Below, in pieces: positions 4,970-49,912 of a stretch of 64,000 nucleotides of DNA. Position 1 is the first letter of the stretch. Each line of letters begins with the position of its first letter. The stretch covers positions 2,080 through 66,079 of the forward strand of contig CAIYOY010000383.1 of the NCBI GenBank assembly GCA_903927905.1, read 5' to 3'. Under the pieces are notes generated by a model, which had not been told where the DNA came from, did not search any database, and saw nothing but the letters and a program-made list of their open reading frames with translations. A program made the position numbers and the translations under genes. This stretch comes from an uncultured Verrucomicrobiales bacterium (GTDB lineage Bacteria; Verrucomicrobiota; Verrucomicrobiia; Limisphaerales; Palsa-1400).

Positions 4970-7234
4970 ATGAAAGGGTCTGGCATAAAGATGCAATGGA
5001 AACGTTTCGAAAAAACGTTTGCTTGGATATTGTTACTGACAGCCGCGCTTTGGTCACCGTGCGCTCACGCGCAACTGGTGGCTGACGGCCAGACAAATAT
5101 ATTGGATGGAACAACGGTCACCTTGACCAAGGTGATCGCCGTTGGCACCAACGGCACCCTCACTCGATTGATTCTGACCAACGGAGCCACGATCATCAGC
5201 AGCAACGTGACCGAAATCATCGGTTATAACCAGTCTGCTAAAACAAACAGGGTCGTTGTCAGCGGCCCCGGTTCGGCCTGGACAGGAATAAGCAATTTTT
5301 TTGTTGGCCTGAATGGTTCTTTCAATGAATTGGATATTCTTGATGGCGGACTCGTCTCTGATGCATCGGGATATTTGGGTTATAATACACCGAGCAGCAA
5401 CAACCTTGCCTTGATATCAGGAACCGGTTCTGTGTGGTCGAACAGCGCCCTTTTTGGATTGGGGTATGGCGGGAGCCGCAACCAGATAATCGTCACCAAC
5501 GGAGGGACATTTTATGGTGGAAGCTCGACCAATAATGGCACCAGCAACATGTCCGGCACTAACACCGTTACCATCACCGGCACCAACTCGAGTTGGATCG
5601 GAGGAAATGGCTTGTCCACGTTTGGGCAAGGAGGAACTCAATTATTGATCAAAAATGGCGGCTTATTGAACCTCTCTGCCAGGACGTTGGAGATTGGTCC
5701 TTCCACATCCCCCGATTATCTCACAGTGGCCGATCCCGGATCTTTGCTTCTATGCCGACAATTTCTTATAGACACTTTAAGCCCAAGCAATCAGTGCGTA
5801 ATCAGCAACGGAGCAACGCTCCGGATAGCCACTTCCAATGGTCCTGCGTGGGCGGATATTCAGGGCACGGGCACCAAAGTAACTGTCACCGGAGCAGGAT
5901 CTGTTTGGACCAATGATTACGATATGAATTTTGGTGACGTTTCCAACGTCCTCCTCATCGCCAATGGCGGGAGGGTTTTTGATCGAAATGCCTCTATTTT
6001 ATCCACCACTCACGTGACCGTATCCGGGACCAATTCCCTCTGGAATAATGCGGGCCAATTGCAACTCTGGTCTCCTTATTTGCAACTATTCATCACCAAT
6101 GGCGGAAATATGATCGATAATTCCTGCTACATGGGGCTGGGCAATGATTTAGACAATTGTTATGCGCTGGTTACCGGGGGTGGTTCCGTCTGGAGCAATC
6201 AGACCTTTTTGGACGTAGGAGGGCAATTGGTTATATCCAATTCCGGCACACTGGTGGCGCAAAATTTGACCCTTCAAAACGACAGCACTTACAACAGCAA
6301 TTACGTTACGGTGACCGGAGGCAATTTAATCGTGACGAACAACAACTCCGGAAATCTCTATGTTCAAGGTGGAACCCTGACCCTTAGCTCAGGATTGATC
6401 CAATGCGACACGCTTTCATTAAGCAATAGCAACTCGGGCAGATTCATTTTCAATGCTGGAACAGTGCTGGCTCATAATTTCATTTATCGCAACATGACCA
6501 ACATGGTCGTTGGCAACGGCACCAACGCGGCCACCCTCAATCTCACTGCGGCTGGCGGCAGTGGGGGGAGTCACCAATTTCTCAGCGGCCTGTTTGTTTC
6601 AAGCAACGCCCTATTGACCGGAGTGGGCACGATCAATGGGAATATTTATATCAGAGCAGGCGGAACGTTTTCTCCCGGCACCACAGACATCCTTTCACTG
6701 ACGGCCAGCAATGGATTGGTCTTGAGCAACGGCAGCTTCACGCTTCTCGGATTGAAACCGGGCACCAGCCAAAATTATCACGTGGATGGACTGACGAATG
6801 TGGTTTTTGGCGGCACGTTGCAATTGACCAATCTTGACGGGGGGGCCTATGGCGACGGCTTGAGTTTTGCGCTTTTCAATTCGACCCATTATTCCGGTGG
6901 TTTTAGTAATATCATCCCGTCGAATCCCGCTCCCGGACTTCGTTGGGACACAAATGAGCTGGCCGTGGATGGCACGCTGCGGATTTTTTCCACCAATACC
7001 CCCAGTCCGCACATCACTGGCACAGCCCAATCCAATGGGAATGTCGTGATCTCTGCCTCCGGTGGCATTTCTTACGACCCGTGCTACCTGTTGACGAGTA
7101 CCAATGTCGGCGCCCCAATCTCCAATTGGACCTGCATCGCCACAAATGCCTTCACCACGAACGGCGTCATCAGTTTTACCAACCTGATCAATATTGGAGT
7201 GCCTTCAAGTTTCTATCAACTCAAGGTCAATTGA
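4970..7234 (+). CDS. Secreted beta-helical repeat (adhesin/passenger-like) protein with C-terminal FYQLKVN domain
   Basis: Signal peptide ending AHA. Repeats of the form VxGxGSxWxN...LxIxNGG, Gly/Asn/Thr rich. No beta-barrel seen at the C-terminus. Confidence 0.75.
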   Translation: MKGSGIKMQWKRFEKTFAWILLLTAALWSPCAHAQLVADGQTNILDGTTVTLTKVIAVGTNGTLTRLILTNGATIISSNVTEIIGYNQSAKTNRVVVSGPGSAWTGISNFFVGLNGSFNELDILDGGLVSDASGYLGYNTPSSNNLALISGTGSVWSNSALFGLGYGGSRNQIIVTNGGTFYGGSSTNNGTSNMSGTNTVTITGTNSSWIGGNGLSTFGQGGTQLLIKNGGLLNLSARTLEIGPSTSPDYLTVADPGSLLLCRQFLIDTLSPSNQCVISNGATLRIATSNGPAWADIQGTGTKVTVTGAGSVWTNDYDMNFGDVSNVLLIANGGRVFDRNASILSTTHVTVSGTNSLWNNAGQLQLWSPYLQLFITNGGNMIDNSCYMGLGNDLDNCYALVTGGGSVWSNQTFLDVGGQLVISNSGTLVAQNLTLQNDSTYNSNYVTVTGGNLIVTNNNSGNLYVQGGTLTLSSGLIQCDTLSLSNSNSGRFIFNAGTVLAHNFIYRNMTNMVVGNGTNAATLNLTAAGGSGGSHQFLSGLFVSSNALLTGVGTINGNIYIRAGGTFSPGTTDILSLTASNGLVLSNGSFTLLGLKPGTSQNYHVDGLTNVVFGGTLQLTNLDGGAYGDGLSFALFNSTHYSGGFSNIIPSNPAPGLRWDTNELAVDGTLRIFSTNTPSPHITGTAQSNGNVVISASGGISYDPCYLLTSTNVGAPISNWTCIATNAFTTNGVISFTNLINIGVPSSFYQLKVN

Positions 7235-7296
7235 TCGGCCCTGATTCAAAACTCTGCACCAAATAATCCTGTCTGCGAATCTGTTTCCGGGTTACA

Positions 7297-10200
7297 TTGG
7301 CGGTAATTTCCACAGTTGTGTTTGACGCTTATCACATATCGGGATCGGTGGGTCGCTGGCCCAGCCTCGTTCCGCGAACACTTCTGATTTTGTTTTTACT
7401 GGCTACCCGGCCTGCGGCGATCCAGGCCGCCTATACCGGTTCCGTGGCGGTGGTCCCGGTCAATTCCTCCATTCAAAGCGCGGGCACCGAGATCATGGGC
7501 TCCGGCGGCGGCACCGGTAATTTTATTTATAAGGGCGGCGGCAATGCCGTGGACGCTGCGGTCGCGACCGCCTTGGCCGCATGCATCATAGTCCCCTCCA
7601 GTTGCAGCTTGGGCGGCTACGGCGGACATATGATGATCTGGAAATCTGGCTGGGACGGCGATCCGCAAAAGGCCACGTGCATTGATTTCAATACCGCCGC
7701 CGGTTCGCTCGCTTCCTCGAACATGTTCGTCGGCAGCGTCAATTTGACCAATGGCCACTGGACCGGCACCTTGCCCGCGGCCAATCTCGTCGGTTGGAAA
7801 ACAACCGGAGTTCCCGGCACGTTCGCGGGCTTATACATGGCCCAAACCAATTATGGACGGAAGATCAACGGCACGAATTTTTTTCCGTTCGCCGAAATCA
7901 TGAAGACCGCCCTCGCTCGCGTGGCCAACGGACAGGCCATCGCCACGCCGTATTACACTTTGACCAGCGTGAGCAATTTGCTCATGGACCTTTACACCAA
8001 TGCCGATCCCAACGCTGTTTTCTATACCGGCGATATCGCCCAAGCCATCGCCGCCACCATGCAAACCAACGGCGGACTCGTCACCTACGCCGACATGACG
8101 AATTATCGTCCGCGCGAAGTGACGCCGTACGCGCGCCACTTCAGTTGTCCCGGTGGCACGCCCGCAACGGTCTATATGGCACCGCTCGGTTCGTCCGGAC
8201 TTTCGGTCATGCAGGAACTCGCCATGATCGAAGCGCTCGGTTGGACCAATGGCCCGACCGGCACCTGGGACAATCTGCACTACTGGCATTCGCGCGCGGA
8301 AGTGGCACGCTTGAGTGTGAAGGACCATTATCAATGGATGGGCGATCCGTCGGCCGGAGTGACGCCGCCGGATTTTCTCGGCAACGGCAGCACCAATTTC
8401 TTCGATCAAATGCTGGCCCACGCCACAATCAGTTATTCTGCGGCTTGTCCCTGGGATGCGAACGAAATCCGGTTGACCAATAGCTACGCCAATTTGATCA
8501 CCGATGCTGTCAATCAACAAACCAATCTGACCATTTCCGTGGATTGGGATGACATTCGTTACGGCACTTGCAATATTTCCACTTCGGATCAATGGGGCAA
8601 TTGCGTCGCGGTCACTCTGAGCATGGGCGCGAGCTACGGCGCGCATGTGGCCGTGACCAATCGCGCCATCGTCTTTGGTCAGAGCATGGCGCTCTTCGAT
8701 GCGCGGCCCGGCTGGCCGAATTCCATCGCTCCCGGCAAACGTCCGGTGGATAATATGAGTCCTGCGATTGTCGTTCCCGATCTTCCAATTTCGCCCACGA
8801 ACGGTTCCGCCGGTGGCCGTCCGCCATTCGCCGTCGGCGCGGCAGGCGGTTCCACCATCGAAAATAATATGGCGATGCAGTTGGCCAAATATCTGATGGA
8901 CGGCCCGTCCAGCAGCACGGTGGATCCGGCTTATTGGTTGTATAATTTCGAAGCCAACACCGATATTTACATGCTGCCATCGTTTCCCGCCGGCGTGGCG
9001 AGTTATCTGAATTCCGTGGGTTTTGCCACTTCCACAAGCCCTCCGGAAACCGGCCTCGTGTCCCACGTCGAAGCCTGGATTGCTCCCGCCATTTTGACGC
9101 CACCCACCGGCAGCAACATCACCAGCGGCAGTTCAATTTCTTTGGCCGTGACCGCCACGGGTTTGCCCTTGTTTTACCAATGGTCCACGAATGGCGTCCC
9201 GCTGAGCGATGGCGGAAGCATCACCGGCAGTCAAACATCACAACTCAACATTTCTGCCATCGCCCAGGGCGCGGCTTATACTGTGACAGTCAGTAATGGT
9301 GCCGGAATCGTGACCAGTTCTGCGGCAAATCTGACCGTTGATGGCAAACCCGCCATCGTCACGCAACCCGCCAGCCTGACCAATGCCATCGGCTCTACCA
9401 CGACGTTTTCCGTTTCCGCCATTGGAAACAATCTCGCGTATCAGTGGATGAAAAATGGTTCGCCGCTCGCCGCCACCAACAGCGCATTGATTCTGACCAA
9501 CGTTTACGACCAAGCCTCCTACTCGGTCGTGATCACCAACGTCCAGGGCAGCGTCACCAGCGCCATAGCGACCTTGACCATCGTGCTGCCAAACACCCTG
9601 CTGCTCTATGAGCCATTCGATTACACAAATGTCGGCAGCTCCGTCAGTGCTAACACGCCGACGAACTGGACCTTCGGCGGCTCCGGCGCCGACGATCTGA
9701 ATGTCGCCAGCGGAAACCTTTCCTATCCGGGGTTGGCGGCCTCCATCGGCAATAGCGTGACCAACGGCGGCGCGGGCCTCGGCGTCCGCCGTTTGCTCGG
9801 CACCAATATCAGCGGCGGCAAAATTTATTTCTCCGCCTTGCTGCGCATCAATGATCTCGGCTTCGGCTCGTGGAACGGCCAGACCTCCAGCCTCGCGTCC
9901 CTGACCGCGCCTGACAACACCAGCTTTCGCCTCCAGGTCATTGTCAAATCAAATTCGCCCAACGGCTATCTCATCGGCACCCAAAAAAGCGGGACCGGCG
10001 CGACTTCCACTCTGGACACGACCGAACGTCATGCCGGTGACACTTTATTTCTGGTCGGCAAATACGATTTCACCGTCACGCCCAACGTGGCGAAATTATG
10101 GGTTAATCCCGCCGTCTTCGGCTCAGTCACCGAACCTTCCAACGGCGCTATCACCGCCACGAACGGTCTGGACGGTTTCACCATTGATCGCTTTAACCTC

Positions 10201-10518
10201 CGTCAAAACGCCGCCACCGGCAGCTTCAGTGTGCCGACATCAGTGCAATGGGATGAACTGCGTTTCGGTCTCGCATGGTCCGACGTCACGCCGCCCGCGC
10301 TGGTGACGTTGACTGGCTCCGCCCGGGCCGGTCCCGGGTCGTTTCAATTCTCCTATACCAATCTTAGCGGCCTGACCTACACCGTTTTCGCCGCCACGAA
10401 TTTGATCGATTGGAACGCCATCGGGCAGGCCACGCAGATTTCATCCGGGATTTTTCAATTCACCGATTCCGCGACCGCGAATTTTCCTTATCGTTTCTAC
10501 CAACTGCGTTCACCCTGA
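7297..10518 (+). CDS. Gamma-glutamyltransferase-family Ntn hydrolase fused to two Ig-like domains, a beta-sandwich domain and a C-terminal FYQLRSP domain
   Basis: GGNAVDAAVATA, GVPGT, NGGLVTYADMTNY, nucleophile region GTCNISTSDQWGN, APGKRP and GAAGG. Ig motifs YQWxxNG...YxVxVxN. Start codon uncertain. Confidence 0.85.
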   Translation: MAVISTVVFDAYHISGSVGRWPSLVPRTLLILFLLATRPAAIQAAYTGSVAVVPVNSSIQSAGTEIMGSGGGTGNFIYKGGGNAVDAAVATALAACIIVPSSCSLGGYGGHMMIWKSGWDGDPQKATCIDFNTAAGSLASSNMFVGSVNLTNGHWTGTLPAANLVGWKTTGVPGTFAGLYMAQTNYGRKINGTNFFPFAEIMKTALARVANGQAIATPYYTLTSVSNLLMDLYTNADPNAVFYTGDIAQAIAATMQTNGGLVTYADMTNYRPREVTPYARHFSCPGGTPATVYMAPLGSSGLSVMQELAMIEALGWTNGPTGTWDNLHYWHSRAEVARLSVKDHYQWMGDPSAGVTPPDFLGNGSTNFFDQMLAHATISYSAACPWDANEIRLTNSYANLITDAVNQQTNLTISVDWDDIRYGTCNISTSDQWGNCVAVTLSMGASYGAHVAVTNRAIVFGQSMALFDARPGWPNSIAPGKRPVDNMSPAIVVPDLPISPTNGSAGGRPPFAVGAAGGSTIENNMAMQLAKYLMDGPSSSTVDPAYWLYNFEANTDIYMLPSFPAGVASYLNSVGFATSTSPPETGLVSHVEAWIAPAILTPPTGSNITSGSSISLAVTATGLPLFYQWSTNGVPLSDGGSITGSQTSQLNISAIAQGAAYTVTVSNGAGIVTSSAANLTVDGKPAIVTQPASLTNAIGSTTTFSVSAIGNNLAYQWMKNGSPLAATNSALILTNVYDQASYSVVITNVQGSVTSAIATLTIVLPNTLLLYEPFDYTNVGSSVSANTPTNWTFGGSGADDLNVASGNLSYPGLAASIGNSVTNGGAGLGVRRLLGTNISGGKIYFSALLRINDLGFGSWNGQTSSLASLTAPDNTSFRLQVIVKSNSPNGYLIGTQKSGTGATSTLDTTERHAGDTLFLVGKYDFTVTPNVAKLWVNPAVFGSVTEPSNGAITATNGLDGFTIDRFNLRQNAATGSFSVPTSVQWDELRFGLAWSDVTPPALVTLTGSARAGPGSFQFSYTNLSGLTYTVFAATNLIDWNAIGQATQISSGIFQFTDSATANFPYRFYQLRSP

Positions 10519-10524
10519 TTCACC

Positions 10525-11571: not shown

Positions 11572-11662
11572 AAGTGAGTTAAAGATAATCCATTTATCAT
11601 CTTGTCCAACTTTTAAAAACTCGCTCCCTCGAAATTTTTCCTTAAAATTTACCGGTCACTTG

Positions 11663-12142: not shown

Positions 12143-12146
12143 GATG

Positions 12147-12243: not shown

Positions 12244-12248
12244 TACTC

Positions 12249-33082: not shown

Positions 33083-36000
33083 TTGAACCAGATTCTTCAG
33101 ATCGCAGGACTGTTGTGTCTTGTTATTTTGGCGGCGATGGCCTGGACGGCCGCCCTCCGAAAACAAGTCCGCCGCCAAACCGATTTATTACGGGAACAGT
33201 TGCGCCGTGAATTGACGCTGGCTGAGCTCGGCCAGAAACTTTCCTGCGCCGACACGGCCCTGAGCGCCGCCCGCATCATCGTGGAAACCGCCGACCAGTT
33301 GCTGGGCTGGGATGCCTGCGCAGTTTATCTTTATCTGAACGATAAAAATAAAATCGAGCCGATCCTTAACGTGGATCTGGTGGAAGGAAAGCGAGCGGAT
33401 GTGCCCAGCACTTATGACGGAGGCGATCCCAGCCCGATGGCGCGCGAGGTCGTTGAAATGGGGCCACGCCTCATCCTGCGCGACAAAACCAAAACCGCCG
33501 CGGGCCAGTCTTTGAAATCTTTTGGCGATGCGGGCAAAAAATCGGCCTCGCTTATGTTCGTGCCGATGCACGACGGGCCAAGGGTCATCGGTGTCCTGTC
33601 CATCCAGAGTTATCAATTCAATTTTTACGATCAGACGAAACTTCACCTGCTCCAATCCCTGGCCGACCATTGCGCCGGCGCGCTCGAACGCATCCGCGCG
33701 CGCGAGGCGTTGAAACTGGCCTACGACAAACTGGAATCGCTGGCCGCTGATCAACAGGCGGAACTTCATCGGTCGAATACCTGGTTGCAACAGGAATTCC
33801 TCGAACGCCGCGATACCCAGGCGGCGTTGACCGCCGGGCAGCATTTGCTGGACGCGCTCCTGGATAACGTGCCCGACCTGATTTATTTTAAAGATTCCGA
33901 CGGACGGTTCACCCGCATCAACCGCGCCGGCCTGCGCAAACTCGGCCGCGAGGAGGAAAAAGATGTGCTGGGCAAGACGGACTTCGATTTCCTTCAACCC
34001 GAATATGCCCAAGCCGCCGAAGCGGACGAAAAGGAAGTCATGCGCAGCGGAATTTCCATGCTGGACAAGGAAGAGCATGAATTCTGGCTCGACGGCCTGG
34101 AAAGCTGGGTCGTCACCACCAAAATGCCGCTGCGGGACAAAAACGGCGTCATCGTCGGCACCTTCGGCATCAGCCGCGACATCACCGCGCGCAAACGGGT
34201 GGAACTGGCCCTGGCCAAGCACGAAGCGGAGCAGCGGATGATATTTGACTCCGTCCCGGCCATGATCTGTTACAAGGACACGCACAACACCAATCTCCGG
34301 GTCAACAAATTCGCCGCCGAATTGATCGGTCTGCTGGCGGACCAGATCGAAGGCCGCAGTGATTTTGATCTGATGCCGCAATACGCGGAACAATATTATC
34401 GCGACGACTTGGAAGTGATCGAATCCGGCCAACCCAAACTCGCCATCATCCAACCCTATGTCCGGGCCAGCGGCGAGACCCGCTGGCTGCAAACGGATAA
34501 GATTCCGTATTGCGATCCCGATGGCAAGGTGGTCGGGGTGATCGTTTTCGCCACCGACATCACCGAGCGCAAGCTGTTTGATGAAGCGCTGCAAAAAGCC
34601 AACGACGACCTGGAACGACGCATCGAAGAACGCACCGCCAAGCTCTCGCGGGCGGTGGCCTTGCTAAAACAGGAAATTGCGGAACGCCGCCAGGTGGAGG
34701 TTCGGAACGAAGCCTTGTCCCACTTGGGCCAGCAATTAAGCCTGGCCACCGACTCGGTCGCCGCCGGTCATATCATTCTGGACGTGGCCGACCGGCTCCT
34801 GGGCTGGGACGCTTCTTATCTGCACCTGTTCACCCCGGACTTGAAACAGAACGTGCCCATCCTGATGTACGATCTGATTGACGGGAAGCGAACGGAAGTG
34901 GAGGACAAGGACATCGAATTTTCCGCGCGCGACCGGCGCACCATCGAACACGGGGCCGAACTGGTCAACACCCCTTCCACCGGGACACTTCCTTTTGGCA
35001 GCCCCAGGCGCACTCCTTCACGCCTCTACGTGCCGATCCGCAACGGCGCCAAAGTCATCGGCGTGATGTCGGCCCAAAGTTACACCGAAAATGCTTATGA
35101 CAAGGAGGATTTAAACATCCTGCAAGCCCTGGCCGATTTTTGCGCCGGAACGCTGGAGCGCATCCAGGCCGAGCAATCGCTCCGCCATTCCGAGGAACGT
35201 TTTTCCAAGGCTTTCCGCTCCAGCCCCATGCCCATGACCTTGAGCAATCAGGACCGGGGCACCTTCCTGGATGTCAATGACAGCCTGTTGCGTTTCCTGG
35301 GTTACACCCGCGAGGAAATGCTGGGCCGAAACGCGTTCGATCTGGGCATTTGGTTCCGACCGGAAGATCGCGCTGTCATGATTTCGCTGTTGCAGGAAAA
35401 AAATTCCGTGCGCGAATGGCCCACGCAGATGCGCACCAAAACCGGCGCGGTGCGCGACGTGATCATTTCCGTTGAGCCGATGGATTTCGCCGGCCAGCCG
35501 AATATCCTGTCCATCATTCAAGACGTGACCGAACGGCTCAACCTGGAGGCCCAATTGCGTCAGTCGCAAAAAATGGAGGCCGTCGGCCAATTGGCGGCAG
35601 GGGTGGCCCATGATTTCAATAACATCCTGACCATCATCCAGGGCCATGCCGGCATGTTGCAACAAGTCCGCAATCTGCCGGAAAATATCAGCCGCTCGCT
35701 CACCCAGATTTCGGCGGCGGCGGATCGCGCCGGTTCGCTCACCCGCCAATTGCTCACTTTCAGCCGCAAACAGGTGATGCAACCCCGGCAGCTCGATTTG
35801 AACGCCGTCGTCGGCAACGCCGCGCAAATGTTGCAACGTCTGCTCGGTGAAAACATCACGCTCCACTTCGATTATTCCGCGTCGCTGCCTCCCATCCAGG
35901 CCGACCCTGGCATGATGGAACAAATCATTGTCAACCTCGCGGTCAATGCGCGCGATGCCATGATCGCCGGCGGGAAACTCAGCATCAGCACCCAGTCGGT

Positions 36001-36694
36001 GATGGTGGATGACGAAAATATCCGGCGCAACCGCGAGGCCCGCACCGGTCGTTTTGTTTGCCTGCGCGTGGCCGACAACGGTTCCGGCATGGATGAAGCC
36101 ACGCTGGGCCGCATCTTCGAGCCGTTCTTCACCACTAAACAAGTCGGCAAAGGAACCGGTCTGGGATTGGCCACGGTCTATGGCATTGTCAAGCAACATC
36201 AGGGGTGGATCGAAGTCACCAGCACGCCGGGTCAGGGAACTGTTTTTCATATCTATTTTCCAGCCAGCACTCTGGCCCCGGTGCCCACCGCCGAGGCGGC
36301 GGCAGCGGTCGCGCCCAAAGGCGGGACCGAAACCATCCTGGTGGTGGAAGACGAATTCACCCTGCGCGAACTGGTGCGCAATCTCCTTCAACATTTTGGT
36401 TATCGCATCCTGGAAGCCGCCAACGGCCCGGAAGCCCTGAAAGTCTGGCGCGCTCATCGCTCGGAAATAAGCCTTATGTTGACTGACATGATGATGCCGG
36501 AGGGACTTTCCGGCTGGGAACTGGCCAAGCGCATTCACCAGGAACAACCCGATCTGAAAGTCATTTACACCAGCGGTTACAGTGTGGATTTATTCGGCGA
36601 AAACCGGGAATTGCGTGAAGGCGCGAACTTCCTGCCCAAGCCCTATCATCCCGTCACCCTGGCCAAGGCCATCCGTGATTGCCTGGATTCTTGA
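33083..36694 (+). CDS. Hybrid histidine kinase TM-GAF-PAS-PAS-GAF-PAS-HisKA-HATPase-REC
   Basis: IGVLSIQSY (GAF), [10 protein letters not shown] (PAC), [41 protein letters not shown] and LTDMMMP. Confidence 0.92.
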
Positions 36695-38867: not shown

Positions 38868-41800
38868 ATGAATTTTCGTTTCCGAACTGCCTGGCACCCA
38901 ATCCAGGCCGCGCTGCTGCTTGGCCTGCTGGGTCTTATCCCGGCCCAAGCGGCCGGGAAAAGTGTCCAGTATCTGGATCAGCTCTGGCAAATTGAGGACG
39001 GTTTGCCTGGCCAGATCGTTCGCCAGGTTCTCCAGGGCCATGACGGTTATCTTTGGGCCGCCACCAGTCAAACGCTCACCCGCTTTGACGGCCTGCATTT
39101 TTCCCTCAACAATTTCCCCACTTACGAAAAGGACCGGCAATATCTGGCGCTCGCGAAAACTTCCGACGGCAGCATGTGGGTTTCGTCCAGTGACGGCCTG
39201 GCCCGGTTTAAAAACGGCCAGACCACTTTTTACACCCAAACCAACGGCCTGCCCTGCAACTACATCCTGACCGTTTATGAAGACCGGCATGGCACCATCT
39301 GGATCGGCGCGACCAACGGACTGGCCAAATTTCAGAACGAAAAATTTATCCACTTGACCAGTAACGAAGGCTTTCTGGAAAATTCCGTCCGCGCCATTCT
39401 GGAAGATCATGCTGGCACGCTTTGGGTCGGCACGGTCGAGGGTTTGATCGAATATCGCGAGGGCCACACCATTTACCACACTCAAACCAACCTCTACCAT
39501 AATTCGGTCCAATGCCTGGCCGAAACCGCCGACGGCAGCCTGTGGGTCGGCACCAGTGATGGCCTGGATCGCTACCGTAACGGTGTCTGCACCACTTACA
39601 ATCAAAGAGAAGGCGAACTTTACGATCACAATGTGCGCGCGCTTTATGAAGGGCCGGACGGCGGCTTGTGGATCGGTTCGCTCGGCGGGTTGCAGCGCTT
39701 TCACCGGGAAAAATTCGAGCGCGTCGCCATCGCCGGAGATTTGGCGGCGGATTATGACAACGCCGTTCCCGGCTACGTTTATTCGATCTGCGGCGACAGT
39801 GAAGGAGACATCTGGGTCGGCACCAGCCTCGGGTTGAACCGGCTCAAACCGCAACTGTTCCGCACCCTGCGGAAGGAAGACGGCCTGCCGGAACGCCAGA
39901 TCAATTCCGTCCTGCAGGATCATAATGGCGATCTGTGGGTTGGGACCTACGGCGGTGGGCTGGCGCAAATCCATGAAAATAAAATCAAGACTTGGACCAC
40001 CCGCGATGGTTTGAACAATAACCACATCTATGGCTTGTGCGAAGACCACTCCGGCGGCCTCTGGGTTGGCACCAAAAACGGCGGTCTGGATTATTTTATC
40101 CACGGAAAAGTCGCCAAGGAATACAACATCACCAACGTGGCCAATCTGGCGGACAAAACGGCCAGAGTCATCGTGGAAGATCGCAGGCACGATGTCTGGG
40201 TTGGCGGCAATAATGGCTTAAGCTGCCTCCATAACGGCGTTTTTCGAGCCCCTGACCTCAATCTCACCGTGGTCAAAACTATTCTCGAGGATGAGCAGGG
40301 AAATATCTGGGTTGGCTTCAAATCGGGGCTGGCCCGCATCACTGACGGCCAGACCAAAATTTTTGGCCGGGCTGACAATTTCCCCGTCGAAATGGTCAAT
40401 GCCCTCTGTCAAGGTGATCACGGCAGCATTTGGGTCGGGACCGATACCGGCCAACTGTTTCGCCTGAACAATGGCACCATCAAAACCTGTCCATCCACCC
40501 AATCTCTCTTCACCCGAATCCTGCATATCTTCGACGATAATACCGGCCATCTCTGGATCACCACGCAACGCGGCGTCTTTCGCCTGAACAAAACCCAGCT
40601 TGAAACCGGCTCGGACCCCGCCGTCCAGGCGGTCGCCTATGGCAAACTGGACGGCATGAAGCGCGCCCAGTGCAACGGCATTGCCCAACCCTCGGGTTGG
40701 AAATCCGCCGATGGACAACTCTGGATTCCAACCATCGCCGGGCTGGTATCGGTGGATGTCAAGTCGGTCCAGGCCAATCAGACCATCCCGAAAGTTGTCC
40801 TGAAAGAAGTCATTGTTGACGGCCAGCCCATTGCCATGGAAGGCGTCGCCCCCCGCCTGCCGCCTGATTGCGAAATTGAATTTACCAGCACGGCCCTCAG
40901 CCTCCAATCGCCGGAACATATCCTCTTTCAATGCCGCCTCTCTGGATTGGACGCCAAATGGCAAAACCTCGGGACCCGGCGCACTGTCCACTACCCTCAT
41001 CTGGCGGCGGGCAACTACATTTTCCAGGTGCGCGCTTGCAACAGCGAAGGACTGTGGAATCCGGTGGGCGCATCGTTCGCTTTTGTCATCGCACCCTATT
41101 TTTACGAAACGGGAGGATTCTGGTTGCTGGGTTTGATCGTCGTTGCCGGTTCTGTTTTGGCTCTGTTTCGGTTCCGCGCCCACCAACATGAATTGCGTGA
41201 AAAGAAACTGACCCGTTTAGTGGAAGAAAAAACCCGCGGGCTGGTCGAAACCCAGCAAATCGTCCTGCGCCAGGAACGTCTGGCCGCCGTCAGCCAGTTG
41301 GCCACCGGCATCGCCCATGAATTCAATAACATCCTGACCATCATCCAGGGCCACACCGCTCTCCTGATGGAAAACCCGAATCTCGATGCCGAGTCCATCA
41401 AATCGCTGAACCATATCGGCGAGGGCGTCGATCGCACGGCCAAGCTCACCCAACAAATCCTCGCTTTCAGCCGCAAACAAATCATGCAGCCTCAAGTCCT
41501 TGATCTCAACGCCGTCGCCGGCCACATCACCCAGGTGCTCGGCCGTTTGCTCGAAGAAAATGTCCGCGTCTGCTGTGATTTTGATCCCAAGATTCCCACC
41601 ATTGAGGCCGACCCCGGCATGATCGAACAAATGGTCATGAACCTCGCGGTCAACGCCCGCGACGCCATGCCCAAGGGCGGCCAATTAACCATCGCCACTG
41701 CTAACGCCACCTTCAATCAGGCGGATGTCCTGCTCCGGCCTGAGCGCCGTCCGGGTTCGTTTGTGCAATTGAGCGTGACCGACACCGGCTGCGGCATGGC

Positions 41801-42413
41801 TCCCGCCGTGGTCAATCGCCTCTTCGAACCGTTTTTCAGCACGAAAGAAGTCGGCAAAGGCACCGGCCTTGGCCTGGCCACGGTGTACGGCCTGGTGAAC
41901 CAGCATCAGGGTTGGATCGAGGTGGATAGCACGCTGGGAAAAGGAACAGCTTTTCGCATCCACTTTCCCATCAGTGGCAAACCTTTGCCCGTTATCCCGG
42001 AGAAAACTTCGCCCGCAAAAACAGGCGGTCACGAAACCATCCTCGTGGTGGAGGATGAACCGGTCTTGCGCGAGCTCGTCCGCGAAATTCTGCAGGACCA
42101 GGGTTATACCATTCTCGAGGCGGGCAACGGCGTCGAAGCGATCGCCGTCTGGGAGAAGGAGCGGCAGCGGATTGATTTGTTATTGACAGATATCATCATG
42201 CCCGAGGGGATTTCCGGCCATCAACTGGCGGCCCGTTTTCAGGCGGACAATCCAAGTCTGCCCGTGATTTTCAGCACCGGCCACAGTCGCGAGATGATCG
42301 AGCGCAACCATGGCACCGCCCCCGGCACCCTCTTCCTCTCCAAGCCTTATCATCCGGCGCAGCTTTCCGAAACCGTCCGGGAATGTCTGGATGCCGCCCG
42401 CGCCAAAAAATAA
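38868..42413 (+). CDS. Hybrid histidine kinase with periplasmic two-component regulator propeller and Y_Y_Y domain
   Basis: Many EDxxGxLWVGT blades, YIFQVRACN, a TM helix, IAHEFNNILT, HATPase and REC. Confidence 0.92.
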   Translation: MNFRFRTAWHPIQAALLLGLLGLIPAQAAGKSVQYLDQLWQIEDGLPGQIVRQVLQGHDGYLWAATSQTLTRFDGLHFSLNNFPTYEKDRQYLALAKTSDGSMWVSSSDGLARFKNGQTTFYTQTNGLPCNYILTVYEDRHGTIWIGATNGLAKFQNEKFIHLTSNEGFLENSVRAILEDHAGTLWVGTVEGLIEYREGHTIYHTQTNLYHNSVQCLAETADGSLWVGTSDGLDRYRNGVCTTYNQREGELYDHNVRALYEGPDGGLWIGSLGGLQRFHREKFERVAIAGDLAADYDNAVPGYVYSICGDSEGDIWVGTSLGLNRLKPQLFRTLRKEDGLPERQINSVLQDHNGDLWVGTYGGGLAQIHENKIKTWTTRDGLNNNHIYGLCEDHSGGLWVGTKNGGLDYFIHGKVAKEYNITNVANLADKTARVIVEDRRHDVWVGGNNGLSCLHNGVFRAPDLNLTVVKTILEDEQGNIWVGFKSGLARITDGQTKIFGRADNFPVEMVNALCQGDHGSIWVGTDTGQLFRLNNGTIKTCPSTQSLFTRILHIFDDNTGHLWITTQRGVFRLNKTQLETGSDPAVQAVAYGKLDGMKRAQCNGIAQPSGWKSADGQLWIPTIAGLVSVDVKSVQANQTIPKVVLKEVIVDGQPIAMEGVAPRLPPDCEIEFTSTALSLQSPEHILFQCRLSGLDAKWQNLGTRRTVHYPHLAAGNYIFQVRACNSEGLWNPVGASFAFVIAPYFYETGGFWLLGLIVVAGSVLALFRFRAHQHELREKKLTRLVEEKTRGLVETQQIVLRQERLAAVSQLATGIAHEFNNILTIIQGHTALLMENPNLDAESIKSLNHIGEGVDRTAKLTQQILAFSRKQIMQPQVLDLNAVAGHITQVLGRLLEENVRVCCDFDPKIPTIEADPGMIEQMVMNLAVNARDAMPKGGQLTIATANATFNQADVLLRPERRPGSFVQLSVTDTGCGMAPAVVNRLFEPFFSTKEVGKGTGLGLATVYGLVNQHQGWIEVDSTLGKGTAFRIHFPISGKPLPVIPEKTSPAKTGGHETILVVEDEPVLRELVREILQDQGYTILEAGNGVEAIAVWEKERQRIDLLLTDIIMPEGISGHQLAARFQADNPSLPVIFSTGHSREMIERNHGTAPGTLFLSKPYHPAQLSETVRECLDAARAKK

Positions 42414-42555
42414 AAAATTGGGATGTCCTACTGTTTTTGCGGGATGTTCATTTCACGCTTCCACTATTGAATTTCCGGGAAACCTTCCCCATACTTTAAT
42501 TCGATTGAATGGTGTTCCAATACTCAACGAGCAGCCAGCCCGCACCGATCTAACA

Positions 42556-43716: not shown

Positions 43717-44174
43717 ATAAACCCGGAAAACTAATTACGATACTGCTGGCCGACGATGATCCCGATGATCGGCAAATGACCCAGGAAGCCCTGTCGGAAT
43801 GCCGCCTGGCCAACGAAATGCACGTCGTGGAAGATGGCGAAGAACTCCTGGATTATCTGTTCCGACGCAACAAATACGCCAACCTGGCCAAGGAACCGCT
43901 GCCCGGCTTGATCCTGCTTGACTTGAACATGCCCCGCAAAGACGGTCGCGAAGCGCTCAAGGAAATAAAAGCCAATCCCGATCTGCGCCGCATTCCCGTC
44001 GTCGTTCTGACCACTTCCAAGGCGGAGGAGGATATTTTGCGCACCTACGATCTCGGCGTGAATTCTTACATCACCAAACCGGTGACTTTTGATTCGTTGG
44101 TGGATACGATCAAGGTCCTGGGCCGGTATTGGTTTGAAATTGTGGAATTACCGCCGGATGAACATTCCATTTGA
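43713..44174 (+). CDS. Single-domain response regulator (Rcp1-like)
   Basis: ILLADDD, ILLDLNMPRKDGRE, PVVVLTTS and NSYITKP; ATGA overlap with the kinase gene. Confidence 0.92.
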   Translation: MNKPGKLITILLADDDPDDRQMTQEALSECRLANEMHVVEDGEELLDYLFRRNKYANLAKEPLPGLILLDLNMPRKDGREALKEIKANPDLRRIPVVVLTTSKAEEDILRTYDLGVNSYITKPVTFDSLVDTIKVLGRYWFEIVELPPDEHSI

Positions 44175-44177
44175 CCC

Positions 44178-46079
44178 ATGACTAACGGCCCCATTCGCGT
44201 CCTGCTGGTGGATGATGATGAAGATGATTACATCATCACGCGGGATCTTTTCAGCGAATTGGACGCGAAGTCGTATCAGTTGGACTGGGTCAAAACTTAT
44301 GAAGCCGGGCTGGAAGCGATGATCCGGCGGCAACACGATGTTTGCATCGTTGATTTTTTTCTCGGCGCGCGCACCGGACTGGATCTCCTCAAACAAGCCA
44401 AATCTTACGGTGCCCAGGCCCCGATCATCCTGTTGACCGGCCAGGGCGACCATAGCGTGGACTTGGATGCCATGCGCGCCGGGGCGGAGGATTTTTTGGT
44501 GAAAGGCCAGATCACCGCCAAATGGCTCGAGCGCGCCATCCGTTACGCCATTGAACGCAATCGGGCCGAGGAAAAAATCCAGAAGCTCGCGGCCTTTCCC
44601 CGGACTAATCCCAATCCAGTGCTGGAGTTCAGCGCCGAAGGGAAGATGACTTACAGCAATGACGCAGCCCAGCGCATGGCGGCGTCGCTCGGCAAGGACT
44701 CCCTGCTGCCCGCGCTGCCGCCGGACACGCAAATCATCATCGTGGAGTGCCTCCTGTCCGGCCAAAATAAAATCAACCTCCAGACCTCGCAGCAGGGGCG
44801 CACCATCTCCTGGTCGTTCATCCCGAATACCGCGAGCAAGACGGTGCATTGTTACGCCAATGAAATCACCGACCGTTTGAACCTGGAAGCGCAACTGCGC
44901 CATTCGGTCAAGATGGAAGCCATCGGCCAGTTGGCCGCCGGCGTGGCCCATGATTTTAATAACATTCTCACGGTCATTCAGGGACATGCCGACCTGTTGC
45001 TGCACTCGCCCAAGGTGACGCCGGAAACGGAAAAGCCCCTGCTGCAAATTTGCCAGGCCTCGGAACGGGCCGGCAAACTGATCAAGCAACTGCTCATGTT
45101 CAGCCGCAAACAGGTCCTGCAATTGCGCTTCGTGGATGTGAATGAGATCATCAGCAATGTCAGCAAGATGTTGCAACGCCTGCTCGGCGAACATGTCCAA
45201 TTTGACTTTATCCAGGGCCAGAACCTGGCCCCCATTTATGCCGACGTCGGCATGATCGAGCAAATCCTCCTCAATCTTTCAATCAATGCGCGCGATGCCA
45301 TGCCCGGCGGCGGACGCCTGATCATCAGCACGGCACAGGTGGTCTTGGAGCCGATGGCTTCGATCCTGAATCCCGAGGCGCGCCCCGGCAATTTCATCTG
45401 CCTCAGTGTCAAAGATACGGGTTGCGGGATGGACCATGCGACCCTGCATCATCTCTTCGAGCCGTTCTTCACCACGAAAGAAACCGGCAAGGGCACCGGC
45501 CTGGGGCTGGCCACGGTCTATGGCATTGTCAAACAGCATCAGGGCTGGATCGTGGTGGACAGCCAGCTCAATGCCGGCTCGACCTTTTCCATTTTTCTGC
45601 CCAGCGCGGCGCGCGAAACCGCCACGGTTGCGCCGGAAGCGCCGGAAGCCAGGCCGACCGTGCCCGGCGGCCATGAGACCATTTTGGTGGTGGAGGATGA
45701 ATCGGCCTTGCGAGAATTGGTGGTCAGCATTCTTGAGCTTTACGGTTACAAGATCTATCAGGCTGAAACCGGGGTGGCCGCGCTGAAAGTTTGGGAAAAA
45801 CACAAAGATGAAATTGACCTTCTATTGACTGACATGGTCATGCCGGAAGGGATTTCAGGACGGCAATTGGCCGAGCGCTTGCACCAGGAAGATCCCGAAC
45901 TGAAAGTCATCTATACCAGCGGTTACAGTCCGGGCATGGCGGGCAAGGACATCGCTTTGCTGGAAGGGTTTAATTTCCTGGCCAAACCGTATCCGCCCAA
46001 TCGTCTGGCCCAGGTGGTCCGCGAATGTCTCGACGGGGTCAAAAAGGGCCACACGGAATTATACCGGAAAAACAAGTGA
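44178..46079 (+). CDS. Hybrid REC-PAS-HisKA-HATPase-REC protein
   Basis: N-terminal [33 protein letters not shown] and a C-terminal REC. Confidence 0.92.
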   Translation: MTNGPIRVLLVDDDEDDYIITRDLFSELDAKSYQLDWVKTYEAGLEAMIRRQHDVCIVDFFLGARTGLDLLKQAKSYGAQAPIILLTGQGDHSVDLDAMRAGAEDFLVKGQITAKWLERAIRYAIERNRAEEKIQKLAAFPRTNPNPVLEFSAEGKMTYSNDAAQRMAASLGKDSLLPALPPDTQIIIVECLLSGQNKINLQTSQQGRTISWSFIPNTASKTVHCYANEITDRLNLEAQLRHSVKMEAIGQLAAGVAHDFNNILTVIQGHADLLLHSPKVTPETEKPLLQICQASERAGKLIKQLLMFSRKQVLQLRFVDVNEIISNVSKMLQRLLGEHVQFDFIQGQNLAPIYADVGMIEQILLNLSINARDAMPGGGRLIISTAQVVLEPMASILNPEARPGNFICLSVKDTGCGMDHATLHHLFEPFFTTKETGKGTGLGLATVYGIVKQHQGWIVVDSQLNAGSTFSIFLPSAARETATVAPEAPEARPTVPGGHETILVVEDESALRELVVSILELYGYKIYQAETGVAALKVWEKHKDEIDLLLTDMVMPEGISGRQLAERLHQEDPELKVIYTSGYSPGMAGKDIALLEGFNFLAKPYPPNRLAQVVRECLDGVKKGHTELYRKNK

Positions 46080-46205
46080 TTGGGTTGATCGAAGCGGGCA
46101 GAGGAATCTAAAATATTTACAGCGTCGAACCAAGAAATTAAACAAGCGAAATCAAACTTAGATTTCGCGTCCCGCACCTCGCTGAGATCAGCCAAGCGAG
46201 CCGCA

Positions 46206-46239
46206 GCAATTCCATGTAACATATGTTACATGGAATTGC
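46206..46239. promoter_or_regulatory. Perfect 34-bp palindrome upstream of pfk; candidate operator
   Basis: GCAATTCCATGTAACAT|ATGTTACATGGAATTGC. Confidence 0.6.
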
Positions 46240-46352
46240 CACGGCTTTGAGTTTCCCCTTTACAGTTTAGCTTCAGGTTGGCAAGGTTCGTTTCGTATTT
46301 ATTGCCGGTACTACCCAACTGGCAAAGCCACAGTTCGAACCCATTTACACCT

Positions 46353-47624
46353 ATGGCAGAATTAATCGGAAATCTTTTAGTCGCCCAATCAGGCGGGCCC
46401 ACCGCCGTGATCAACGCCAGCGTTGCCGGCGTCGTGCAGGAAGCCAAAAAACACGCCTGCATCAAAGGCATTTACGGCGGCATGAACGGCATCCTCGGAA
46501 TTCTCAACGAGCAGTTGATGGATCTGCGCGCGGAAAAGGATGAGGTCATTGAAGCGCTAAAGCACACTCCCGCCGCCGCGTTGGGCACCTGCCGTTACAA
46601 GATCGATTTTAAAAAGAAACCGGAAAAAGCAGCCAAAGACATGGATCGGTTGTTCCAGGTTTTTGAGGCGCACGACATCCATTTTTTCTTTTATGCCGGA
46701 GGCAATGATTCGCAGGACACAGCCGATAAAATTCACGGAGAAGCGATCAAGCGCGGGTATGAGATGCGGGTCATCGGGGTGCCGAAGACGATTGATAATG
46801 ATTTGCCGCATACGGACCATTGCCCGGGATTTGGCTCGGTGGCGAAATATAATGCCACCACGGTGATGGAAATCGCCACCGACGTCAGCAGCATGGCGAC
46901 GGATGACGGGGCTTGTTGCGTGGTGGAGGTGATGGGACGCGGGGCGGGCTGGATCGCGGCCAGCACGGTTTTGGCGCAACGCGCGCCCGGTGATGCGCCG
47001 CATATCATTTTGTTGCCGGAAATTCCGTTTAATGAAGCGGCCTTTTTGGCCAAGGTGAAATCGGTCGTGGCCAAGCTGCGCTACTGCGTGGTGGTGGTCG
47101 GCGAAGGGTTGAAGAAGGAAGACGGCACTGAATTCAGCGCGGACACGACTCGCTTGGACGCGTTCGGCCACCCGGTGCTTTCCGGCGCGGCGGAGCGGTT
47201 GGCGGAAATTGTTTACGGGAAATTGAACACCAAAACGCGTTCGGTGAAGCTCGGTTACGCCCAACGCTGCGCTGCGCATTACGCCAGCGCCACCGATGCG
47301 GCGGAAGCGGCCGCCTGCGGTGAAGCAGCGGTGCGAGCGGCCACCGAAGGCAAGAGCGGTTACATGGTGAAGATCGTTCGCACGCAACAATCTCCTTATA
47401 AATGGAAAACCGATCTGCAACCGCTGAAAGACATCGCCAACGTCGAGCATTTCATCCCGCGCGATTGGATCAGCGCGGATGGGTTCATGCCGAACGAAAA
47501 ATTTGTGGACTATGCGCGTCCGTTGATCGAAGGAGAAACAAAAGTCCCGACCGAAGGAGGCTTGCCCAAATTCGCCGTGCTGGAAAAGAAGCAATTGCCG
47601 AAAACGCTGGGGAAGAGAAGTTAA
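46353..47624 (+). CDS. pfp: 6-phosphofructokinase, probably PPi-dependent
   Basis: AQSGGPTAVINAS, GGNDSQD (Asp typical of PPi-PFK), PKTIDND and EVMGR. Start at ATG 46353. Confidence 0.85.
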   Translation: MAELIGNLLVAQSGGPTAVINASVAGVVQEAKKHACIKGIYGGMNGILGILNEQLMDLRAEKDEVIEALKHTPAAALGTCRYKIDFKKKPEKAAKDMDRLFQVFEAHDIHFFFYAGGNDSQDTADKIHGEAIKRGYEMRVIGVPKTIDNDLPHTDHCPGFGSVAKYNATTVMEIATDVSSMATDDGACCVVEVMGRGAGWIAASTVLAQRAPGDAPHIILLPEIPFNEAAFLAKVKSVVAKLRYCVVVVGEGLKKEDGTEFSADTTRLDAFGHPVLSGAAERLAEIVYGKLNTKTRSVKLGYAQRCAAHYASATDAAEAAACGEAAVRAATEGKSGYMVKIVRTQQSPYKWKTDLQPLKDIANVEHFIPRDWISADGFMPNEKFVDYARPLIEGETKVPTEGGLPKFAVLEKKQLPKTLGKRS

Positions 47625-47643
47625 AAAAAGGATTTTGGACTCG

Positions 47644-47736
47644 CGCGAAGCGTCTGGTGCGCCTTGTTAGTTGGCGTTTTTTGTCGGCACAGCGTCAAAA
47701 GGGGTAGAGAGCTAACCACACTCCAGGCGCTTCGCG
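47644..47736. repeat. Degenerate REP-like inverted doublet after pfk
   Basis: CGCGAAGCGTCTGG ... CCAGGCGCTTCGCG match 13/14. Confidence 0.55.
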
Positions 47737-47830
47737 AATTTTTCCATTTGATCCACCTGCGCGCACAGGCGCACCGGTGTTAACGCAAATCATGGCTTGA
47801 CTCCCGGTCGGGGCCCGATAATTTTCGCCT

Positions 47831-49912
47831 ATGTCAAAATCGGGCAAAAAAGCATGTTTTTTATTGGTTGTTTTGACCCATTTTCTCCTACTGGCTCCCT
47901 TTGGCTCCGTGGCGGCAGCGACCGCCAATTTCAACACCATTTTCCACTACAGCGTATTTTATTATGACGATAACATGGACTTCAATCCTGGCATCTTTCT
48001 GGGTATTACCGGCGAAGTTCATGGCAATCGAAATATTTACGTAGCCGCCTTAGCTAGCCTGACATTCTCCAACGAAGTAGAAGCGGCGGGGAATATAATT
48101 AGCGGGAAAAACCCGGCCAGTCCGCTGGCCGCCGGCACCGGTCCGGTGAATTTCCTGAGTACAAAAACCTCTGGAACACCCATTTATTTTCTCCCAAGTG
48201 ACGCAACCAGTCAAAACTTCAATGGACATGCCCTTGTTGAGGTGCCACCCGTAGGAGAATCGTCCACCACTGGATTTGGAACGAACCGACTTTACAATCA
48301 GGTGGACATGATTATCACCATAACCAACAGTCCAACCAATCCGGTCGTGATCCAAGCCAAGAGTGGGATAGCAATCAACGGCGGGCTGACCACCACCATC
48401 CCTTGGACCAATTTTTTATCCACAAATCTGACGTTCTATGATTTCCGTCAATCAGCCACGATCCAAGCCGTCACCCTTGATATTGGTAAATTAAAACGAT
48501 GGAGCGAAACTAATTCCCTGTTACGACCCTTGTTGGGCAATAGGGATGTCACATCTGTTTTCCTCGCCGATGTGCGCGCAATGGCCAGCACCAATCAGTC
48601 AGGCATCGTGATCACCAACGGGAAATTCCTTCCCTCGCTCGGGTTAACGATTGTCACGCCTAATCCTGTTTTTACCCTAGGAGATTTCAATACGACCATT
48701 GATGGAACCAACTTCTATCCCGGGACCAATGACACATCACATACACGACCGGCCGCAATCATGTGTGATGCAATTAATATATTATCGAGCTCCTGGAACC
48801 CGGGCGCCTTCGTTTTAGCCACCCGAATTGCCGCCAGCACTACGGTCAATGCCGCCATCGTGACCGGCAATGTCACCACCACTAACAGCCACTACAGCGG
48901 AGGGGTGGAAAATTTTTTCCGATTTTTGGAAGACTGGAGCTTTGGGACGTTTACATACAACGGATCCATGATCCAACTTTTTGCCAGCCGAATTGCCACT
49001 GCCCCGTGGGTCGCCCCCGGCCCATCAGCCAGCGTTTATAATCCTCCCGTCTGTCATTGGAATTTTGACCGGAATTTTTTAAATGCGGCAAAAGTACCGC
49101 CCTTGACGTTTTATATTGATACAGGGCCGGTTCCGTTGCCGACCATTTTGGCCGATCCTCAAAGCACAAATGTTCTAGTTGGAAGTTCTCTGACCTTGAG
49201 TGTTTTCGCGACCAACAATTTTTCTGGTTTCTATGCAACCACCCCTCTGACTAATCAATGGTATTTCAATACCAACACTCCGCTGACCAAGGCCACCAAC
49301 AACACCCTGATCTTGACCAATATCCAACTGGCCCAAGCCGGAGTGTATCACGTTATGGTCTCCAATGCTGCCGGAGGGGTCGCCAGCGCCTTTGCGACCG
49401 TCACCGTGACGAAGAGCGACACCGTAACCACCCTTGGCGCCTTGCCTTGGTCGCCTCAGTTCCAACCCTTAGATTTTTCTGCCACCGTCACCGCTGCTTC
49501 CGGAACGCCTACTGGCCAAGTCGAATTCAAAGACGGCGTCAATAGCTTGGGCTCCGCTCTCTTAATTTCCGGCACAGCCCTGTTGAACAACATCAACCTT
49601 TCTCTCGGCAATCATACCATCACCGCTTATTATTCCGGTGACGCCAAATACAACGCCAGCAGCTCCAGTTCCGCCGTGCAACGTCTTGGGTTTTATTTCC
49701 TGCCACCAATCTTGAAACCAGATGGAACGGTGAGTCTGGGTGGCTCAAGCACTCCCGGTCAAACCGCCGTTCTGGAACACGCGGACGCCTTGCAAACCCC
49801 GATGATCTGGCTCCCGCTTGACACCAATACGGCCGACACCAACGGTCGCTACAATTTCATTCAACCCATTTCTGGCGCTACTTCCAGTTTTTATCGCCTG
49901 CGCCTGCCGTAG
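47831..49912 (+). CDS. Secreted protein with a PilX/HpsA-C-terminal-like domain, Ig, Big_3-like domain and C-terminal FYRLRLP domain
   Basis: Sec-type signal; PAAIMCDAINILSSSW, YSGGVENFFRFLEDWS and YNPPVCHWNFD; GTPTGQVEFKDG...HTITAYYSGD. Confidence 0.7.
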   Translation: MSKSGKKACFLLVVLTHFLLLAPFGSVAAATANFNTIFHYSVFYYDDNMDFNPGIFLGITGEVHGNRNIYVAALASLTFSNEVEAAGNIISGKNPASPLAAGTGPVNFLSTKTSGTPIYFLPSDATSQNFNGHALVEVPPVGESSTTGFGTNRLYNQVDMIITITNSPTNPVVIQAKSGIAINGGLTTTIPWTNFLSTNLTFYDFRQSATIQAVTLDIGKLKRWSETNSLLRPLLGNRDVTSVFLADVRAMASTNQSGIVITNGKFLPSLGLTIVTPNPVFTLGDFNTTIDGTNFYPGTNDTSHTRPAAIMCDAINILSSSWNPGAFVLATRIAASTTVNAAIVTGNVTTTNSHYSGGVENFFRFLEDWSFGTFTYNGSMIQLFASRIATAPWVAPGPSASVYNPPVCHWNFDRNFLNAAKVPPLTFYIDTGPVPLPTILADPQSTNVLVGSSLTLSVFATNNFSGFYATTPLTNQWYFNTNTPLTKATNNTLILTNIQLAQAGVYHVMVSNAAGGVASAFATVTVTKSDTVTTLGALPWSPQFQPLDFSATVTAASGTPTGQVEFKDGVNSLGSALLISGTALLNNINLSLGNHTITAYYSGDAKYNASSSSSAVQRLGFYFLPPILKPDGTVSLGGSSTPGQTAVLEHADALQTPMIWLPLDTNTADTNGRYNFIQPISGATSSFYRLRLP

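Follow-up and report, generated by a model that had tools for sequence, protein, structure and literature searches.

A C-terminal beta-sandwich domain on unrelated exported proteins of Verrucomicrobiota as a candidate surface-retention or docking module

Why should three unrelated exported proteins, encoded within one stretch of DNA from an uncultured Verrucomicrobiales bacterium, end in the same short domain? The stretch analysed here (hereafter the window) comprises 64,000 nucleotides of contig CAIYOY010000383.1 in assembly GCA_903927905.1 (G000:C383:2080-66079, where G000 is the assembly and C383 the contig), a lake-water Verrucomicrobia genome of 4.74 Mb in 427 contigs that is 81% complete. 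A search for sequencing runs listed three DNA runs of lake-water metagenomes, all from a single study, and none of RNA. The initial annotation proposed that three open reading frames (ORFs) of the forward strand, at 4970..7234 (gene 1), 7297..10518 (gene 2) and 47831..49912 (gene 3), share a C-terminal domain of ~70 residues. Both the coordinates and the ends proved correct: the proteins finish in ...SFYQLKVN, ...RFYQLRSP and ...SFYRLRLP, respectively, and the common tail measures ~72-78 residues. Aligned alone over their last 89 residues, the three tails are 25-29% identical and share nine fully conserved columns, among them W, G, F and F-Y-x-L; the tail of gene 1 (variant CYLLTSTNV..W..) is the most divergent of the three. 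Their cargoes are unrelated, as had been claimed, with TIGR04393 repeats in gene 1, a gamma-glutamyltranspeptidase (GGT) with Ig domains in gene 2, and an HpsA-like region with Ig_3 and Big_3_5 in gene 3, and the last ~75 residues of all three are uncovered by any Pfam or NCBIfam model. Profile searches place the three window tails in a very large and as yet uncatalogued family of Verrucomicrobiota domains.

We searched the complete set of 22,977 ORFs in G000 (stop to stop, 80 aa or longer) for the tail. A regular expression for the C terminus retrieved 36 ORFs, three of which appeared by eye to be chance matches; a hidden Markov model (HMM) built from this set and iterated retrieved 85, with the domain terminal in 82, and the union of six HMMs at E<1e-3 retrieved 102, including all three window genes. 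The HMM matches of the window tails reach the stop codon in genes 1 (6998..7231, +; genome-search match G000:C383:9077-9310) and 2 (10288..10515, +; match G000:C383:12367-12594, E 3.8e-19), and the tail of gene 3 lies at 49676..49909 (+; match G000:C383:51779-51988). None of the 22,977 reversed and none of the 22,977 shuffled ORFs used as decoys was matched by the tail HMMs, and the similarity of the tails is not due to chance. Strict C-terminal position, a check set beforehand, was borne out, the tail lying within 12 residues of the stop codon in 99 of the 102 carriers, none of which has two copies. Signal peptides co-occur with the tail: a signal-like N-terminus is present in 66 of the 76 carriers of the 85-ORF set that are not cut by a contig end, according to our own hydrophobicity heuristic, which calls a start codon plus a hydrophobic stretch and is not a dedicated predictor. 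The hydrophobic N-terminal signals attributed to all three window proteins were found by the same means. Predicted signal peptides of ~35 aa ending in ...CAHAQ (4970..5074, +) and ~30 aa ending in ...FGSVAAA (47831..47920, +) open genes 1 and 3, respectively. In gene 2 the first in-frame start, TTG at 7297, gives no such segment and one appears only from the GTG at 7348 (codon 18), which is likely the true start.

The cargo of the tail is highly varied. We scanned 39 of the 40 best-scoring carriers with Pfam, the 40th being gene 2, which was scanned separately. Enzymes among the 39 include GH18 and GH25 glycoside hydrolases, two pro-kumamolisin/sedolisin proteases, two subtilases, a reprolysin-type metalloprotease and a non-specific endonuclease, and the non-enzymatic cargo consists of NHL/SBBP/PD40/RCC1/FG-GAP propellers, a beta-helix, DUF11 arrays, Ig arrays and PATR autotransporter-type repeats. 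Ig domains directly precede the tail in many carriers, nine of the 39 have no Pfam match at all, and in none of the 39 does Pfam cover the tail itself.

The family extends well beyond this genome. Within the same order the tail occurs in 40 of 41 genomes, with 18 to at least 140 matches each, the sole negative being a 2.6-Mb genome that is 94% complete. In a sample of 161 genomes of the phylum, each at least 85% complete, it was found in 68, and it is uniformly present in some families (15/15, 5/5, 5/5 and 4/4) and uniformly absent in others (0/25 and 0/15). A search of 1.84 billion cluster representatives with the tail profile yielded 81,307 proteins at E<=0.001, of which 9,799 also pass E<=1e-10. 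The best 150 of these, which are biased toward multi-copy proteins because they were ranked by summed score, contain 2-22 profile copies each, and the last copy falls within 12 residues of the end in 124; long arrays assigned to fn3 by Pfam are among the 26 proteins in which no copy is terminal. Other genomes encode tandem arrays at the C-terminus in which 2 to more than 10 tail copies, with a period of ~78 aa, are separated by disordered linkers. A less biased word-index search for longer proteins gave a picture closer to that of G000: among the 120 matches listed, 117 end in the tail and 109 are single-copy, on sedolisins, reprolysins, GH5, a pectin methylesterase, a nuclease and PATR proteins, and the few named sources are mostly metagenome-assembled genomes (MAGs) of Verrucomicrobia. 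In the ESM Atlas, the neighbours of the tail are clusters from Verrucomicrobiota that share no Pfam family. The libraries searched, Pfam and NCBIfam, contain no model that covers the domain, and full-text searches of the literature returned nothing on it.

The consensus over 99 tails, ...L.W.G..G..Y.LQ.STNL....W..L.T....TNG...FTD......nRFYRl...., is anchored by a few conserved positions, W44 (97), Y/F31 (87), F71 (82), Y/F72 (97) and R73 (87), and closes with [R]-F-[YF]-R-[LVA] and a further 4-5 residues ahead of the stop codon. In 60 of 82 tails, 4 or 5 residues follow the aromatic-aromatic-Arg motif, and in 46 of 82 the last residue is Pro. Of 4,851 tail pairs, 1,866 align over 50 aa or more, and their median identity is 30%. 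We considered and rejected a recent shuffling of tails as cassettes, since only four pairs reach 55% identity or more and every one of them sits on paralogous cargo. The concentration of conservation on few near-invariant positions amid ~30% identity suggests a shared recognition feature carried by a stable scaffold. AlphaFold2 modelled the tail of gene 3, from a 42-row alignment, with six strands at a predicted local distance difference test (pLDDT) of 87.1 and a predicted template modelling score (pTM) of 0.72. On the strength of this model we are confident in a predicted six-stranded beta-sandwich of ~75 residues with an FN3-like fold that lacks the seventh (G) strand.

The comparison with genuine FN3 domains (PF00041) clarifies this architecture. 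Both are beta-sandwiches, and exhaustive VIA structure searches match the tail to FN3 domains at Z ~6, but FN3 has seven strands against six, repeats with a longer period and follows no positional rule. In the set of 150 proteins described above, repeats recur with a median period of 78 aa (n=296) where the protein ends in a tail and of 92 aa (n=169) where it does not. At E<=10 none of 42 tails was recognised by PF00041, and hhalign gave a probability of 0.1% for the tail against a small 18-row fn3 alignment. A four-tail protein (P0023) has no Pfam fn3 match; genuine fn3 arrays (P0002, P0005 and P0008) match at E 1e-94 to 1e-284. The tail profile nevertheless also matches genuine fn3 arrays and, weakly (E 0.0095), the Clostridium Fn3-like protein 3mpc, and the evidence for homology between tail and FN3 is mixed. 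Protein P0029, made up of a signal peptide, a single true fn3 and three tails, was modelled at pLDDT 84.5 and allows both domains to be compared directly: the fn3 closes with an additional strand (103-106), all three tails are six-stranded, and pLDDT drops below 50 in the linkers (111-116, 188-191 and 267-273), so that strand G is predicted to be constitutively absent from the tail and not supplied in cis by the linker. P0029 and 17 relatives make up a family whose members are small and have this same composition and little else; such proteins could be scaffolds or matrix components rather than cargo.

A further clue to function comes from the passenger of gene 1 (residues 40-680). The name of family TIGR04393 implies that an autotransporter barrel or a PEP-CTERM signal is the usual C-terminus of such passengers. 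Among the 120 homologues listed by our search, 89 carry the tail at their end according to the HMM and 15 more carry, by eye, the same divergent variant as gene 1. Three (P0166, P0255 and P0265) have a clear PEP-CTERM end, a fourth regular-expression match being apparently false; one has a non-terminal tail call, and 11 have other ends, many apparently truncated. Since homologous cargo ends in either the tail or PEP-CTERM, the tail occupies the slot of a known sorting signal. Like the tail, PEP-CTERM (TIGR02595) is a C-terminal feature of secreted proteins in the same phylum, and the two co-occur in genomes. PEP-CTERM is, however, a ~25-residue motif with a transmembrane helix and a basic cluster, whereas the tail is a soluble folded domain without a hydrophobic helix. 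In keeping with the annotation, which saw no PEP-CTERM on the three proteins, the window tails lack any hydrophobic helix and finish in a beta-strand motif.

At the level of genomes, the exosortase (PF09721) occurs in 113 of the 161 sampled, namely 67 of the 68 that carry the tail and 46 of the 93 that do not (lists compared by hand), and PEP-CTERM signals occur in 98 of 161, namely 65 of 67 tail-positive (G000 excluded) and 33 of 93 tail-negative genomes. Replacement of PEP-CTERM by tails at genome level is not supported by these data, presence being nested rather than complementary and copy numbers uncorrelated. Members of the family to which G000 belongs have 0-6 PEP-CTERM matches per genome versus at least 100 tails. 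G000 itself shows 0-2 matches, with one convincing PEP-CTERM ORF by regular expression, which is not a tail carrier. Its single exosortase (G000:C346:12000-18000) lies within an exopolysaccharide (EPS) synthesis locus, resembles XrtA and scores below the NCBIfam cut-offs for every named subtype; given the scarcity of PEP-CTERM matches, the substrates of this enzyme are few or unrecognised.

Taken together, terminal placement, unrelated exported cargo, copy number, lineage restriction and interchange with PEP-CTERM point to a shared address or attachment module and not to a catalytic part. The interpretation that we favour, and to which we give an even chance, is that the tail is a lineage-specific surface-retention or docking module. 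Tail-bearing cargo would cross the cytoplasmic membrane via Sec, after which the tail would bind a shared component of the envelope, be it a surface protein, a glycan of the cell surface or EPS, and diverse hydrolases and adhesins would thereby be kept on or near the cell. The data show the anatomy of the tail, its terminal position, the diversity of its cargo, the signal peptides, the spread over lineages, the interchange with PEP-CTERM and the tandem arrays, whereas its binding, its ligand and the way in which carriers cross the outer membrane are inferred. The near-constant company of exosortase and PEP-CTERM signals in tail-positive genomes and the place of the G000 exosortase among EPS genes also speak for this reading. 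C-terminal arrays with flexible linkers, internal copies, and the absence of T9SS-like (type IX secretion system) components and of a dedicated neighbour among those sought make docking after folding a better fit than a translocation signal. Of the lineage-specific export or anchoring tag first envisaged, what stands is its position, its signal peptides, the diversity of its cargo and its alternation with PEP-CTERM, while export is the less probable role beside anchoring or docking. Tandem C-terminal arrays are the behaviour of avidity-type anchoring modules. SLH, LysM, GW and cell-wall-binding repeats and dockerins, best known from Gram-positive envelopes, are likewise terminal modules, single or tandem, on many unrelated exoenzymes and adhesins, but bear no sequence or fold relationship to the tail.

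Several observations weigh against surface retention or docking. Foldseek found no match in the PDB at E<=0.001 for the model of the gene 3 tail, and the best match of the exhaustive VIA search (Z 8.7, root mean square deviation 2.6, 76 residues aligned) is the C-terminal domain of Nir2, an unrelated eukaryotic lipid-binding domain; the other VIA matches are Ig/FN3-type domains at Z 6-7, a range common for VIA, such that structure searches overall returned generic Ig/FN3-like sandwiches only. Genes lying within 4 kb of the 102 carrier genes show no enrichment of any family (best uncorrected p 0.012). Some Ig-array cargo has paralogues that lack the tail, so that not every such protein requires it. 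Copy numbers of tails and PEP-CTERM signals are uncorrelated (Spearman -0.10 and 0.00), and the association of the tail with exosortase and PEP-CTERM probably rests on few independent events, because the genomes are related. Modules that bind carbohydrate or wall are, as a rule, confined to the terminus less strictly than the tail is, and the ligand and receptor, like the binding itself, are inferred only. We nonetheless rank surface retention or docking first, an export signal second, a substrate-binding module third and an inert cap last.

The second of these, which we consider unlikely, holds that the tail is an outer-membrane export signal, recognised in folded form in the periplasm by a Verrucomicrobiota translocon and possibly then removed, in the manner of the T9SS C-terminal domain (CTD). 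The annotation had drawn the same analogy with Bacteroidota, and it stands as regards placement, cargo and signal peptides: the T9SS CTD is likewise a small beta-sandwich at the extreme C-terminus of unrelated, Sec-exported hydrolases and adhesins, present on dozens to hundreds of proteins per genome in one lineage, and G000 follows this logic closely (99/102 terminal, 66/76 with a signal-like N-terminus, ~100 diverse carriers). The very strict end placement, with 4-5 residues separating the F-Y-R motif from the stop codon in 60 of 82 carriers, and the alternation with another C-terminal sorting signal on homologous cargo also agree with an export role. The analogy does not extend to sequence, as none of 42 tails matched the T9SS CTD models of NCBIfam and Pfam (TIGR04183/PF18962 and TIGR04131) at E<=10. 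The tail has six strands versus the seven of the Bacteroidota CTD, and it forms tandem arrays. Arrays of at least 10 copies, and proteins made of a signal peptide, an fn3 and three tails with little cargo, are unexpected of an export signal, as are the three internal or N-terminal copies in G000. One of these three carriers, G000:C37:11835-13157, is a signal-peptide protein with a tail-like domain near its N-terminus followed by ~300 aa of pentapeptide repeats, another has no Pfam match, and the last is a YHYH protein with 110 residues after the tail copy. The gene beside G000:C37:11835-13157 encodes a tail-carrying propeller protein.

Dedicated machinery outside the window, which the annotation had envisaged, did not emerge among the candidates tried (SprA, DUF1559, secretin and the neighbours of carrier genes). 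SprA_N (PF14349) was found in 0 of 5 genomes of this family (G000 and four relatives), but the control set was equally silent (0/14), which leaves this negative result unvalidated. DUF1559 (PF07596) pseudopilin-type proteins were rejected as machinery: they are concentrated in the tail-less families f30 (24/25 genomes) and f37 (13/15) and are absent or rare in the tail-rich families f35 (0/5) and f20 (4/15). Secretins (PF00263) were found in all five genomes searched, three of which are tail-negative, and are therefore uninformative. Families f30 and f37 show DUF1559 expansions of up to ~300 first-look candidates per genome with neither tails nor PEP-CTERM signals, and the phylum appears to be divided into lineages that differ in their repertoires of secreted proteins.

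Less likely still is that the tail is a substrate- or polymer-binding module akin to carbohydrate-binding modules (CBMs), which would target enzymes to environmental polysaccharide and not to the surface of their own cell. Many carriers are indeed glycoside hydrolases, proteases or lectin-like propellers, tandem copies occur, and the tail profile partially matches chitosan-binding discoidin modules of a glucanase/chitosanase in the PDB (2rv9 and 4zxe, E ~5e-5, 46 of 78 positions). This match, however, spans only the W..Y.IQ.S....W motif, which true fn3 arrays share with discoidin models, and Carbohydrate-binding module family 32/F5_F8_type_C gave weak matches in only 2 of 42 tails (best E 0.0038), no full-length match to the discoidin domain being obtained. 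The cargo, which also includes nucleases, GGT and adhesin-like repeats, has no common substrate, and CBMs are not normally restricted to the last 80 residues of ~97% of their carriers. As for an inert structural cap or spacer, that is, a degenerate FN3-type domain inherited with Ig/FN3-rich extracellular proteins, the generic sandwich fold, the matches of the tail profile to true fn3 arrays and the Ig domains just upstream in many carriers would suit it, but we find it improbable, since a spacer is expected neither to occur solely at the very end of unrelated enzymes in ~100 genes per genome, nor to keep W44 and F-Y-R near-invariant while the remainder drifts to ~30% identity, nor to alternate with PEP-CTERM.

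In soil and fresh water, Verrucomicrobiota rank among the major degraders of polymers, and to our knowledge it has not been established how they display or release their many hydrolases. We advance only tentatively, as a doubtful proposition, that the tail addresses proteins to a hitherto undescribed pathway of outer-membrane sorting or attachment in free-living Verrucomicrobiota, with its own putative receptor or translocon, and is a functional counterpart of the T9SS CTD or of PEP-CTERM/exosortase. If so, 2-3% of the proteome, most secreted hydrolases among it, would pass through this pathway, which, were it dedicated to this task, would constitute a new bacterial protein-sorting system. The tail would in addition serve as a marker of the surface and secreted proteome (~100 proteins per genome in the order) and as a handle on its sorting or anchoring partner, and a curated model would annotate very many C-termini now labelled 'hypothetical'. 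New in the present work are the co-occurrence with PEP-CTERM and exosortase, the negative profiles of DUF1559 and secretin, the comparison of period and strands with true fn3, and the neighbour and shuffling tests.

The three window genes illustrate the range of architectures that precede the tail. Gene 1 (754 aa) has a signal-like N-terminus and a repeat passenger of the type associated with type V secretion systems (T5SS) and PEP-CTERM, in which TIGR04393 matches six stretches (E 1.2e-20); this is the sole family matched, Pfam giving none. Gene 2 (1073 aa) encodes a GGT (PF01019, E 2.3e-57), two Ig domains (Ig_3/I-set in Pfam, aa 597-681 and 692-762), an unassigned region of ~240 aa and the tail; the fusion of GGT to Ig domains and a tail is an unusual extracellular architecture for this enzyme. 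Gene 3 (693 aa) combines an HpsA-like region (aa 333-394), Ig_3 (437-526) and Big_3_5 (545-615), as called by Pfam and NCBIfam, with the tail. Directly upstream of gene 1, positions 1936-4875 (+) encode an exported protein of 979 aa that combines DUF7133 (E 1e-149) and HEAT repeats with a cytochrome c domain at its C-terminus, the architecture of the 'membrane-bound dehydrogenase' of the PVC (Planctomycetes-Verrucomicrobia-Chlamydiae) type. Elsewhere in the window, three hybrid histidine kinase/response-regulator genes lie within 13 kb (33083-36694, 38868-42413 and 44178-46079, +), one with GAF and multiple PAS domains and one with Reg_prop/Y_Y_Y propeller sensors. Finally, the pyrophosphate-dependent (PPi) phosphofructokinase encoded in the window is 70-83% identical to proteins from MAGs labelled Verrucomicrobiales, Verrucomicrobiia, Limisphaerales or Pedosphaera sp.

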